DNA from: Eledone cirrhosa
Lineage: Eukaryota
DNA length: 63,832 nt
Direction: 5' to 3'
NCBI GenBank assembly: GCA_964016885.1
Contig: OZ024741.1
Location: 390,104,169-390,168,000, forward strand
The notes beneath the pieces were generated by a model. That model searched no databases. It was not told the origin of the DNA and saw only the letters and a program-made list of their open reading frames with translations. Positions 11 to 49,882 of this stretch are shown one piece after another (within the stretch, counting starts at the first letter, position 1; each line of letters starts with the position of its first letter). A program made the position numbers and the translations under genes.

Positions 11-2567
11 TTATATATATATGTATATATATATATATATGTGTATATAAATACATATGTATATATATATATATATATGTGTGTATATATACATATGTAT
101 ATATATATATATATATGTATGTATGTATATATATATGTATGTATGTATATATATGTATATATATATATATATATATATATATATATGTGTATATATATAC
201 ATATGTATATATATATATATTATGTATGTAGTATATATATATATATGTATGTATATATATGTATATATATATATATATATATGTGTATATATATACATAT
301 GTATATATATATATATGTATGTATGTATATATGTATGTATGTATATATATATGTATGTATGTATGTATATATATATATATGTATATATGTATGTATGTAT
401 ATATATATATATGTATGTATGTATATATATATGTATGTATATATATATGTATGTATGTATATATATATATATGTATGTATATATATTATATATGTATATA
501 TATATATATGTATATATATGTATATGTATATATATGTATATGTATATATATGTATATATATATATGTATATATATAATATGTATATATATATATATGTAT
601 ATATATGTATATATATATATATGTATATATGTATATATATATATATATATATATATATATGTATATATATATATATGTATATATATTTATATATATATGT
701 ATATATATGTATATATATATATATATATATGTATATATATGTATATATATATATATATATATATGTATATATATGTATATATATGTATTATATATGTATA
801 TATATATATATATATGTATATATATGTATATATATATATATATATATGTATATATATATATGTATATATATATGTATATATGTAATATATATATATATAT
901 GTATATATATATATGTATATATATATATATGTATATATATATATATATATGTATATATATATGTATATATATATATATATGTATATATATATATATGTAT
1001 ATATATATATATATATATGTATATATATATATATGTATATATATATATATGTATATATATATGTATATATATATGTATATGTATATATATATATGTATAT
1101 ATATATGTATATATATATATATGTATATATATATATATATGTATATATATATATATGTATATATATATAGTATTATATATATATGTATATATATATGTAT
1201 ATATATATATATATGTATATATATATGTATATATATATATGTATATATATATGTATATATATATGTGTATATATATATGTGTATATATATATGTAAATAT
1301 ATATATGTATATATATGTATATATATATATGTATATATATATATATGTATATATATATATGTATATATATATATATATATATATATATGTATATATATAT
1401 ATATATATATGTATATATATATGTATGTATATATATATATGTATATATATATGTATATATATATATGTATATATATATATATATATGTATATATATATAT
1501 ATATATATGTATATATATGTATATATATATGTATATATATATATGTATATATATATATATATATATATGTATATATATGTATATATATATGTATATATAT
1601 ATATGTATATATATATATATATGTATATATATGTATATATATATATATATGTATATATATATGTATATATATATATATATGTATATATATATATATATAT
1701 AATATATATATATATATATATGTATATATATATGTATATATATATATATATGTATATATATATGTATATATATATATATGTATATATATATATATGTATA
1801 TGTATATATATATATATGTATATGTATATATATATGTATATATATATATATGTATATGTATATATATATGTATATATATATATATATGTAATATATATAT
1901 ATGTATATATATATATATGTATATATATATGTATATATATGTATTATATATATATATGTATATATATATATATATGTATATATATATATGTATATATATA
2001 TAATGTATATATATATATGTATATATATATATGTATATATATGTATATATATATATGTATATATATATATATATGTATATATATATATATGTATATATAT
2101 GTATATATATATATATATATGTATGTATATGTATATATATATATATGTATATATATGTATGTATATATATATATATGTATGTATATATATATATATGTAT
2201 ATATATGTATATATAAGTATATATATGTATATATATATATATGTATATATATATATATATGTATATATATATATATATGTATATATATATATGTATATAT
2301 ATATATATATGTATATATATTATATATGTATTATATATATATATATGTATATATATATATATATGTATATATATATATGTATGTATATATATATATGTAT
2401 GTATATATATATATGTATGTATATATATATATGTATGTATATATATATATGTATGTATATATATATATGTATATATATATATGTATGTATGTATTTATGT
2501 ATGTGTATATATATATATATATGTATGTATGTATATATATATGTATGTATGTATATATATATGTATG
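11..2567. repeat. Long (TA)n microsatellite interrupted by G (TATG/TATATG units)
   Basis: Directly visible; source of the spurious YI/CI/MY-repeat ORFs. Confidence 0.98.
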
Positions 2568-3267
2568 TAAAAGTAGCGAAACAAACGGTTATTAAATAAT
2601 TTTCTAAATAAATTAAAAAATCGATTAAATAATCACCTGTTCAGATGCCTGTTACCAACGGTTTCATCATTCCGAAAGATTGGAAATCCAACGAATTTCC
2701 AACTGGAAAGAAATGAATCTTCAGACAGCCCTATTTCCACGCTATAAGGTATAGCAAGTAAATATTATGCTCCCTGCCCAACGCATGCGGTCAAGCCGTT
2801 AAAATGACACACATGCAAAATCAGGTCGCTGATAAAAGCTGGATATTATAAACAAGTCGAATTGCCACTAAAATTAGCAGCATTATTCAACGTTTTGTTC
2901 TCTACATAAGGAGAATAAATTATAGAAGTGGATGGATACCTCAACAGGTACAATGTACTTGTAGAAATATTCAAGTTGTTTATAATACATGTGGTTCAAT
3001 GGCACTAATTCGAGATACCAGAACAATATGGAAATTTGTTGGATTTCCATCTTTCGGAATGATGAAACCGTCGGTAACAGCATCTGAATAGGTGATTATT
3101 TAATCATTTTTTAATTTATTTAGAAAATTGTTTAATAACCGTTTGTTTCGCTACTTTTATATTGTTCTGGTATCTCGAATTAGTGCCATTGAACCACATG
3201 TATTATAAACAACTTGAATATTTCTACAAGTACATTGTACCTGTTGAGGTATCCATCCACTTCTATA
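2568..3267. repeat. Interleaved inverted repeats A-x-B-A'-B', possibly a Penelope-like element terminal remnant
   Basis: A 2568-2701 is the reverse complement of 3029-3159 (several mismatches); B 2921-3029 is an exact reverse complement of 3159-3267. The PLE label is inference only. Confidence 0.7.
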
Positions 3268-3762
3268 TATGTATGTATGTATATATATATGTATATATAT
3301 ATATATATAATATATATGTATAAATATATATATATATATGTATATATATATATATATATATATATATATATATATATGTATATATATATATATATATATA
3401 TGTATATATATATATATATGTATATATATATATATATATGTATGTATATATATATATGTATACTATATATATATATGTATATATATATATATATATGTAT
3501 ATATATATATATATATGTATATATATATATGTATATATATATATGTAATATATATATATATGTATATATATATATGTATGTATATATATATATATATATA
3601 TATTATATATATATATGTATGTATATATATATATATATATATATATGTATATATATGTATATATAATATATGTATATATATATGTATGTATATATATATA
3701 TGTATGTATATATATGTATGTATATATATATATATATGTATGTATATATGTATATATATATA
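3268..3762. repeat. (TA)n/(TATG)n microsatellite
   Basis: Directly visible. Confidence 0.97.
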
Positions 3763-3767
3763 CATAC

Positions 3768-4141
3768 AATTCTAGGAGAGGGAAAACTCTGATATAACAC
3801 CTGCAACCCTGATGGTATCCAATGATGTTGACTTGTTCTTCTTTTTGGTAAATATCATCTTGGTTAAGAGAGTGGGACTGGCTTTGTGCAGTGCCTTTGC
3901 TCACTATAAAAGCTTCACGGCACAGGCATTGCTTTATATCTGGAGATCTCTCTGCACTTGTCGTCGCATGGTACCAAGGGCCCAGCACTATGTGTCAATA
4001 ATTGTCACAGGTGTAGTGTTTGTACCAGAGTTTTCAAGTCGCTGGCTGGACTAAAAAGTCACACTCGTTCAGCGCATCGGTAGGGGTTCTCCTACATGGA
4101 TATAAAGTAGTGGCCGTACTCGAAACGAGTTGGCAGCCACC
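3768..4141 (+). mobile_element. 5'-truncated copy of non-autonomous bipartite RTE-derived retroelement
   Basis: Near-identical to copies at 11026, 22082, 26192 and 48323; RTE-type 5' motif CTAGGAGA.GGAAAACTCTGA; shared 3' end GGCAGCCACC followed by (AT)n. Confidence 0.75.
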
Positions 4142-46792: not shown

Positions 46793-46831
46793 AGCATATA
46801 AACAATATGCCCCACACCCCCCACCGCCCCA

Positions 46832-46968
46832 CCTGCAGGACTATGATGAACAGGAGAGGGCTAAGAACAGAGCCCTGGTGGACCCCAACCTGTACGCTAA
46901 ATTCCTCGCTATACTCATTGCCAATCCTAACTTTGCTGACTGCTCCCCTATACATGGCTTGTACCGCT
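46832..46968 (-). repeat. Inverted 137-bp copy of the adjacent LINE's own RT sequence
   Basis: Reverse complement of 45649-45785. Confidence 0.95.
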
Positions 46969-48322
46969 GTATGTATATATATATGTATATATATATGTAT
47001 GTATATATATATGTATATATATGTATGTATGTATATATATATGTATGTATATATATGTATGTATATATATATGTATATATATGTATGTATATATATGTAT
47101 GTATATATATATGTATGTATATATATATGTATGTATATATATATGTATGTATATATATATGTATGTATATATATATGTATGTATATATATATGTATGTAT
47201 ATATATATATGTATATATATATATATGTATATGTATATATATATATGTATATATATATATGTATATATATATATGTATGTATATATATATGTATGTATAT
47301 ATATATGTATGTATATGTATATATATGTATATATATATATATGTATATGTATATATATATATGTATATATATATATGTATATATATATATGTATGTATAT
47401 ATATATGTATGTATATATATATGTATGTATATGTATATATATGTATGTATATATATATGTATGTATATGTATATATATGTATGTATATATATATGTATGT
47501 ATATGTATATATATATGTATATGTATATATATATGTATATATATATATATGTATATATATATATATGTATATATATATATGTATATATATGTATATATAT
47601 ATGTATATGTATATATATATGTATATATATATATATGTATATATATATATATGTATATATATATATGTATATATATGTATATATATATATATGTATATAT
47701 ATATATGTATATATATGTATATATATATATATGTATATATATATATATGTATATATATATATGTATATATATATATGTATATATATATATGTATATATAT
47801 ATATGTATGTATATATATATATGTATATATATATATGTATATATATATATGTATGTATATATATGTATGTATATATATATATGTATGTATATATATGTAT
47901 GTATATATATATATGTATGTATATATATGTATATATATGTATGTATATATATGTATATATATATATGTATGTATATATATGTATATATATATATGTATGT
48001 ATATATATGTATATATATATATATATATGTATATATATATATGTATGTATATATATGTATGTATATATATATATGTATATATATATATGTATATATATAT
48101 ATGTATATATATATATGTATATATATATATGTATATATATATATGTATGTATATATATATATGTATATGTATGTATGTATGTATATATATATGTATATAT
48201 GTATGTATGTATATATATATGTATGTATATATGTATGTATATATATATGTATGTATATATATATGTATATATATATGTATGTATATATATATGTATATAT
48301 ATATGTATGTATATATGTATAT
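46969..48322. repeat. (TA)n/(TATG)n microsatellite
   Basis: Directly visible. Confidence 0.97.
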
Positions 48323-48546
48323 GGCACAGGCATTGCTTTGTATTTGGAGATCTCTCTGCACTTGTCGTCACATGGTACCAAGGGCCCAGCACTATGTGTA
48401 AATAATTGTCACAAGTGTAGTGTCTGTACCAGAGTTTTCAAGTCGCTGGCTGGACTAAAAAGTCACACTCGTTCAGTGCATCGATAGGGGTTCTCCTACA
48501 TGGATATAAAGTAGTGGCCGTACTCGAAAACGAGTTGGCAGCCACC
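48323..48546 (+). mobile_element. Strongly 5'-truncated copy of the bipartite RTE-derived element
   Basis: [26 protein letters not shown] relic; same 3' end followed by (AT)n. Confidence 0.78.
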
Positions 48547-49882
48547 ATATATATGTATGTATGTATGTATATATATATGTATATATGTGTATGTATGTAT
48601 GTATATATATATGTATATATATGTATGTATGTATGTATATATATGTATGTATGTATGTATGTATATATATGTATGTATGTATGTATATATATGTATGTAT
48701 GTATGTATATATATGTATGTATGTATGTATATATATGTATGTATGTATATATATATGTATATATATGTATGTATGTATATATATATGTATGTATATATAT
48801 ATGTATGTATGTATATATATATGTATGTATATATATGTATGTATATATATGTATGTATGTATATATATATGTATGTATATATATATGTATGTATATATAT
48901 ATGTATATATATATGTATGTATATATATATATATATGTATATATATATGTATATATATATATGTATATATATATATGTATGTATATATATATGTATGTAT
49001 ATGTATGTATATGTATATATATATGTATGTATATATATATGTATGTATATGTATGTATATGTATATATATGTATGTATATATATATGTATGTATATGTAT
49101 ATATATATATGTATATATATATATGTATATATATATATGTATGTATATATGTATGTATGTATATATATATGTATGTATATATATATGTATGTATATATAT
49201 ATGTATGTATATATATATGTATATATATATGTGTATATATATATGTATATATATATGTATATATATATGTATATATATATATATATATATGTATATATAT
49301 ATATGTATATATATATATGTATATATATATATGTATATATATATATATGTATATATATATATATGTATATATATATATATGTATGTATATATGTATGTAT
49401 GTATATATATATGTATGTGTATATGTATGTGTATATATATGTGTATATATATATGTATGTATATATATATATGTATGTATATATATATATGTATGTATAT
49501 ATATATGTGTATGTATATATATATATGTATGTATATATATATGTGTATGTATATATATATGTGTATGTATATATATATGTGTATGTATATATATATGTGT
49601 ATGTATATATATATGTATATATATATATATGTATGTATATATGTATGTATATATATATGTATGTATATATATATGTATATATATATATATGTATGTATAT
49701 ATATATGTATGTATATATATATGTATATATATATGTATGTATATATATATGTATATATATATGTGTATGTATATATATATGTGTATGTATATATATGTGT
49801 ATGTATATATATATGTATATATATATATGTATGTATATATATATGTATATATATGTGTATATATATATATATATATATATGT
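48547..49882. repeat. (TA)n/(TATG)n microsatellite
   Basis: Directly visible. Confidence 0.97.

Follow-up and report, generated by a model that had tools for sequence, protein, structure and literature searches.

The present analysis concerns a 63,832-nucleotide stretch of the Eledone cirrhosa genome (assembly GCA_964016885.1, contig OZ024741.1, positions 390,104,169 to 390,168,000 of the forward strand), referred to below in its entirety as the window, and in particular the long TA microsatellites found there within the gene SQOR. Based upon protein matches, six 3' exons of SQOR lie on the + strand at ~30059-54937, one of them sharing 92% identity with the proteins of Octopus vulgaris and O. 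sinensis, and the + strand is the sense strand of the gene, just as a previous sequence-only reading had stated. The window contains no SQOR exon before 30059, nor any match to the first ~200 residues of the protein (its 5' half), so the first 30 kb are likely to be an intron. The microsatellites are tracts of (TA)n interrupted by G on the + strand (TATG type, the opposite polarity being CATA), and every long tract falls within one of two blocks. Block A (1-26967), which is open at the left edge of the window and likely lies inside an SQOR intron, is a nest of TATG-type tracts split by retroelement pieces. Block B (36996-49884), a second nest inside an SQOR intron, comprises a short tract, a 402-bp array, a long interspersed element (LINE), an inverted piece, a tract, a fragment of an RTE-type retroelement that we have termed family B in this analysis, and a further tract. 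On balance, we consider it probable that the long tracts are pieces of a single compound (TA)n(TATG)n array, or of two such arrays, split by insertions and regrown by unit copying. Their common polarity was likely inherited and copied, rather than pointing to mutation biased by strand or to the editing of RNA.

All 15 tract rows of at least 200 bp carry G on the + strand. Three of these rows are parts of a single 2.56-kb tract (12-2569, +), the longest in the window, hence the rows correspond to 13 distinct long tracts. The sole long CATA-type tract (9272-9462, 191 bp, - polarity, 20 CA vs. 1 TG) sits between the arms of an inverted rearrangement, and on both of these points the sequence-only reading was accurate. 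This tract exhibits the same pattern of doublets plus TA runs as the TATG tracts, in reverse, and it does not mirror any TATG tract now present, as the matching place near 8320 lacks a tract. Block A has a TG:CA ratio of 1087:59 and block B one of 327:3. Beyond the blocks lie 11 short tracts of no single polarity: four are G-type, two are C-type, four are mixed, and one is pure TA. Naively, 15 of 16 rows being G-type yields p = 5e-4, although this value treats the tracts as independent of one another, an assumption for which the anatomy gives no support. The argument that a random origin predicts mixed polarity is sound for independent tracts, but it does not apply here, where the tracts are nested in two blocks. 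There are probably about 2-3 independent polarity draws (block A, block B, and the CATA tract), and with ~3 units at 2:1 there is no statistical excess of polarity left to explain. Polarity is thus a property of the two blocks and not of the SQOR gene. Since the SQOR strand is constant across all tracts and only ~2-3 of these are independent, the match between polarity and gene strand is uninformative.

One of the three causes offered by the sequence-only reading was an asymmetry in mutation coupled to transcription or replication. In its transcription-coupled form, A-to-G changes on the sense strand of SQOR would have made each G. The polarity does correspond to that strand, and transcription-coupled mutational asymmetry is known in mammals. 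However, SQOR intron DNA with the tracts masked is unskewed, with TG/CA counts of 334/306 and 362/356, TATG/CATA counts of 20/14 and 28/30, and GC skews of -0.003 and +0.001, on a test of ~10 kb of intron from which a weak skew could escape. The spacing of the G's is similarly contradictory. Separate A-to-G events at the observed rate of 0.228 should leave geometric gaps, whereas consecutive G's were found one dinucleotide apart 32 times vs. 301 expected, two apart 618 times vs. 232, and three apart 36 times vs. 179 (chi2 1276), with the peak corresponding to a TATG doublet. Such mutation is therefore contradicted for the bulk of the G's and could concern the first seed only; we regard it as highly improbable. 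The second suggestion, A-to-I editing of (UA)n RNA later written back by a LINE reverse transcriptase (RT), would be in keeping with sense-strand G's in self-pairing repeats and with the intact RT open reading frame (ORF) alongside them, but the G's are periodic rather than scattered. Furthermore, the retrocopies exhibit no A>G excess in the element sense (A>G 7 vs. T>C 6 among the family B copies), a comparison of the long LINE copies with each other gives 24 A/G vs. 26 C/T differences (unpolarised), and polarity does not flip with the retroelement spacers, which lie in both orientations. Editing with write-back is scarcely credible as the source of the pattern.

The internal composition of the tracts points to a different mode of growth. 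In-phase counts over 14 G-type tracts revealed 1309 G vs. 8 T>C, 31 T>A, 3 T>G, and 4 other changes, with T>C being comparable to the other point changes, and 25 of the 31 T>A changes are grouped in just three runs (6, 5, and 14). Identical units also recur in runs within tracts (e.g., 2-6-2-6 and 2-7-2-7), and repeated six-gap patterns exceed those of shuffled tracts at p<=0.02 in 8 of the 12 tracts tested. As the G spacing is periodic, the rare variants recur in runs, and gap patterns are repeated, it is evident that the tracts grew by the copying of TATG and of units of ~14-22 bp, not by G-by-G mutation. Nearer tracts are also more alike. In block A, texture distance grows as tracts lie further apart in order (rho 0.44, p 0.005), and the trend persists after dropping the first three tracts (rho 0.40, p 0.045), as expected from one array that was cut up or spread stepwise. 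Two other candidate lines of evidence were set aside. Copying between tracts, judged from their longest shared strings, was too weak to use (14 of 91 pairs at p<=0.05, based upon 60 shuffles and a null that is blind to local runs), and a T>A variant common to three tracts is unsurprising by chance.

The material between the tracts is largely mobile. Retroelement pieces account for 13 of the 17 spacers: five family B copies, three ATG-tailed LINE pieces with RT and PHD domains on the - strand, and five others, namely an older RTE-like piece, a piece with zinc-knuckle and endonuclease motifs, the end of a further LINE, an element resembling a short interspersed element (SINE), and the 402-bp array with its LINE. 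These elements lie in both orientations. ATG-tailed ends occur on the - strand at 4566, 13932, and 22690 and on the + strand at 25445, and all four adjoin TATG tracts, which bears out the earlier claim that polarity is maintained regardless of neighbour orientation. Local propagation from an ancestral tract, the remaining cause that had been proposed, provides the best fit of the three. Presumably, a compound (TA)n(TATG)n array would serve as a landing site, and probably also a breakage site, for retroelements. Each insertion would split the array into pieces retaining the parent polarity, slippage would regrow these pieces through the copying of short units, and repair by annealing would presumably keep the polarity, since the best pairing partner of a TATG strand is a CATA strand. 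Family B, whose ends all face the + strand, may have seeded the arrays.

Family B is represented by five copies, all on the + strand. Two of them are found at 3769-4145, a 5'-truncated copy with a tract on either side, and at 11029-11429, where a C-terminal C2H2-like finger precedes the stop codon and the 5' junction has ATG microhomology. The others are located at 22083-22658, with 6 nt of microhomology to the tract at its 5' junction, at 26192-26788, which is the longest, and in block B at 48324-48548. Together they have one common 3' end, five distinct 5' ends, and 8-12 differences per ~220 bases, and because of these distinct ends and differences they are separate copies, not assembler duplicates. 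They retain only the end of the ORF with its C2H2-like finger, while an older RTE-like relative (18083-18850, +) carries an RT fragment as well (RVT_1, 7e-11; zf-C2H2, 3.5e-5, the latter falling just under the curated cut-off). The zinc knuckle and restriction-like endonuclease are absent from the family B copies. The 3' end of a B-related family lies at 19174-19211 (+), followed by a TATG tract, and a second such end is located at ~27133-27170. In the window, all seven B-type 3' ends are on the + strand (p 0.016 for shared orientation) and adjoin simple repeat, with (AT)n coming first and TATG after it. In 5 of 5 family B copies, the tail consists of (AT)n and then the doublet GTATGTA, a unit found building the tracts.

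These features raise the possibility that family B itself builds the polarity: its RNA tail, (AU)n-GUAUGUA, would pair with the CATA strand of a tract already present and thereby prime reverse transcription, and the element would insert in a single orientation, each time stuttering out fresh TATG. The element would then be a cause operating within the split-array model, with which this scenario is compatible. In its favor are the shared orientation of the seven B-type ends, given that other families insert both ways, the tail sequence, the 3-6 nt shared with the tract at the 5' junction of two copies, and the construction of all tracts, including the CATA tract, from the same doublet-plus-TA-run unit. 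From the literature, an O. vulgaris RTE is known to have a C2H2 finger and a 3' untranslated region consisting mostly of microsatellite, the motif of which is not given (PMC9115989), and pairing between tail and target has been proposed for RTEs (PMC6007223). On the other hand, the runs of identical units point to DNA-level duplication. In addition, four of the five copies carry T at the CpG site equivalent to 22587, whereas 95-97% of the family reads have C, so the copies are perhaps local kin and not seven independent draws; the T may come from a source that they have in common, from copying at the locus, or from the decay of a methylated site within a gene body. A causal role for family B is accordingly a serious alternative, albeit an unlikely one. 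In its fullest form, an octopod RTE-type element would make its own landing pad by stuttering in the fashion of telomerase, thereby creating kilobase TATG arrays, homing to them in a locked orientation, and opening them to later colonisation by other elements. We regard this version as doubtful too.

Reads provide some perspective on the abundance of these elements. Reads from runs X1 and X3 (one sample) and from the restriction-site-associated DNA runs X6 and X7 were compared with 22070-24040, cut at the repeat (22647-22725). Both of the families checked, family B and the ATG-tailed family, occur at dispersed sites in very many copies, with ~51,000 reads (in the main read direction) at one family B position out of 12.5 million records in X6, and other copies extend past the truncation points found in the window at 22082 and 24023. 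When sequence collections were scanned for family B or ATG-tail motifs, two metagenome contigs with related LINE ends were recovered, neither of which has a TA tract in the parts examined. Further collection scans with these motifs yielded 0 matches, and two bacterial matches were taken as chance.

Another possibility is strand-dependent expansion, according to which seeds of both polarities arise and only the orientation favored at the replication fork or transcription bubble reaches kilobases, owing to the more stable fold that G-T wobble confers upon the TATG strand. In line with this, the TATG strand forms the more stable fold in each of the three stretches compared (TATG/CATA -20.2/-12.7, -22.3/-16.6, and -27.0/-20.6 kcal/mol). 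The two blocks also have the same polarity, and the sole long CATA tract falls short in length of every one of the 13 long TATG tracts. Orientation-dependent instability is a recognized property of CTG/CAG repeats. However, such a process is superfluous once the tracts are counted as 2-3 units, the gene strand and presumably the fork direction are constant in the window, and the CATA tract still grew to 191 bp. We therefore consider strand-dependent expansion to be rather improbable.

It is also conceivable that chimeric or fold-back reads or a consensus bias created the tracts together with their polarity. An artefact is possible for three inverted pieces that match their partners at 100% (2925-3029, 8320-8528, and 45650-45785). 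In addition, all 16 one-base indels fall in the first two tracts and no read spanned a junction, as the reads were cut at the repeat. Conversely, the element copies differ by 2-7% and have distinct 5' ends, the G's are arranged in local higher-order units, unlike a base-calling bias, the CATA tract is present in the same sequence, and repeats of both the TATG and the CATA class abound in a separate short-read transcriptome, that of O. vulgaris, whose RepeatMasker table includes at least 368 TATG-phase vs. at least 280 CATA-phase labels (PMC9115989). An artefact of assembly or reads is very unlikely to account for the tracts and their polarity. The same label counts were considered as a strand test and rejected, as the RNA library is not strand-specific. 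Within the open-licence literature, no published account of TATG/CATA polarity in cephalopods was found.

Several observations weigh against splitting and regrowth of one or two arrays. Firstly, four of the 17 spacers are not recognised as retroelements: a two-copy repeat (5507-5603), a fold-back segment (5665-10974), a piece with inverted internal copies (2565-3263), and a 94-bp stretch. Secondly, splitting would have to be deduced from the arrangement of the sequence, because target-site duplications cannot be read inside a microsatellite, and the junctions between tracts and elements fall outside the read evidence. Thirdly, the blocks are 10 kb apart and still share their polarity (a 1-in-2 chance), and the uniform + orientation of the B-type ends is unpredicted by random insertion into a ready-made array. 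Lastly, 4 of the 12 tracts tested have no excess of repeated six-gap patterns, and the identity of pattern between the CATA and TATG tracts hints at a common template over a local ancestor.

When compared with known systems, the nests exhibit parallels to three of them. Like RTE-clade LINEs (lepidopteran RTEs, Bov-B and related SINEs, and RTE-2_OV), family B has many 5'-truncated copies, a fixed 3' end at a simple repeat, and junction microhomology, and it shares its C-terminal C2H2-like finger with the octopus RTE-2_OV (PMC9115989). RTEs carry and spread 3' microsatellites (PMC2887409), and the pairing of tail with target has been proposed for RTEs (PMC6007223, PMC13295347). However, the published tails considered here comprise a few units, or in the case of RTE-2_OV most of ~600 nt, whereas the tracts here reach 1-2.5 kb and hold several families, and published RTE insertions are described as not sequence-specific. 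A second parallel is with microsatellite-specific LINEs, i.e., Dong on pre-existing (TAA)n, Togen on (TG)n, and Mino on (AC)n (PMC2887409, PMC4640811, PMC3124438), as here too elements gather in a simple-repeat array and one spacer has restriction-like endonuclease motifs. Those systems differ in that at least six families in both orientations occupy one array here, for which targeting is only a candidate explanation. The third parallel is with the fragile TA repeats of somatic human extrachromosomal DNA, where breaks are mended through microhomology-mediated end joining (PMC13645644). The tract edges have comparable inverted or templated pieces and truncations (2565-3263, 9060-9487, and 46832-46967), although our setting is an intron in the germ line of an invertebrate with interrupted tracts, and breakage would be deduced from the junctions alone.

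The principal caution arising from these data is that tracts within one insertion nest are pseudo-replicates, therefore their common polarity is no evidence of strand-biased mutation or of editing written into the genome. If family B does seed and home to TATG arrays, this would explain part of the high simple-repeat load of octopus genomes and of their element hotspots and would offer a testable case of a LINE making its own target. In O. vulgaris, RTE and Dong-R4 elements have been recently active, with Dong-R4 being the largest recently active LINE group, and element hotspots are reported as well (PMC13282606).

The remaining retroelements of block A include a near-full-length ATG-tailed LINE (13933-17750, -; RT and PHD), which is a sister of the intact copy in block B, and shorter pieces of ATG-tailed LINEs at 4567-5176 and 22691-24021 (both -). 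A LINE 3' piece at 11921-13019 (-) has zinc-knuckle and restriction-like endonuclease motifs recognized by eye, and from these motifs we take it to be Dong/R4-like; Pfam returned zf-RVT only and a PDB search gave no informative match. At 20451-21464 (-) lies a 3' piece of a further LINE family, 81% identical to 59392-60377, with no Pfam match, which we have assumed to be CR1-like. The ATG-tailed SINE-like element (25126-25458, +) is located between two tracts. In block B, the 402-bp tandem array (37046-43310, +; 15.6 copies at 99%) is related to the 5' end of the LINE that follows it (43399-46967, +), which has an intact 1040-aa ORF (43670-46792) encoding endonuclease, RT, and PHD domains. A perfect inverted copy of 45650-45785, 136 bp long, takes the place of the 3' end of this LINE. 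The array and LINE (37046-46967) are young and may be active. Beyond them lie two TATG-type tracts of 1356 and 1339 bp (46968-49884, +), without an isolated off-pattern substitution. The fold-back segment of block A has 1.4-kb arms (5665-7068 and 9570-10973) at 99.5% identity, an inner inverted copy (8320-8528 and 9060-9268) at 100%, and a small hairpin at both outer ends; it represents a DNA element with long terminal repeats or else was produced by repair.

A number of minor observations accompany these features. The tracts hold 650 copies of TGTANATA, presumably a Pumilio-type motif, on the + strand vs. 47 on the - strand, and 631 vs. 27 copies of GTATGT, which resembles a 5' splice site; both excesses arise because the repeat itself contains these motifs. 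Within SQOR, a splice acceptor lies ~50 bp beyond the end of block B (49884-49934), and a direct duplication of ~750 bp (97%; 31157-31904 and 32505-33270) is found on both sides of the exon at 32371-32478. A Mariner-type transposase fragment (51612-52031, -; HTH_48 match at 1e-9) is located inside an SQOR intron. Two minisatellites are also present, one with a 45-bp unit repeated 10 times inside a LINE remnant (28375-28920) and the other with a 43-bp unit repeated 13 times (52122-52666).

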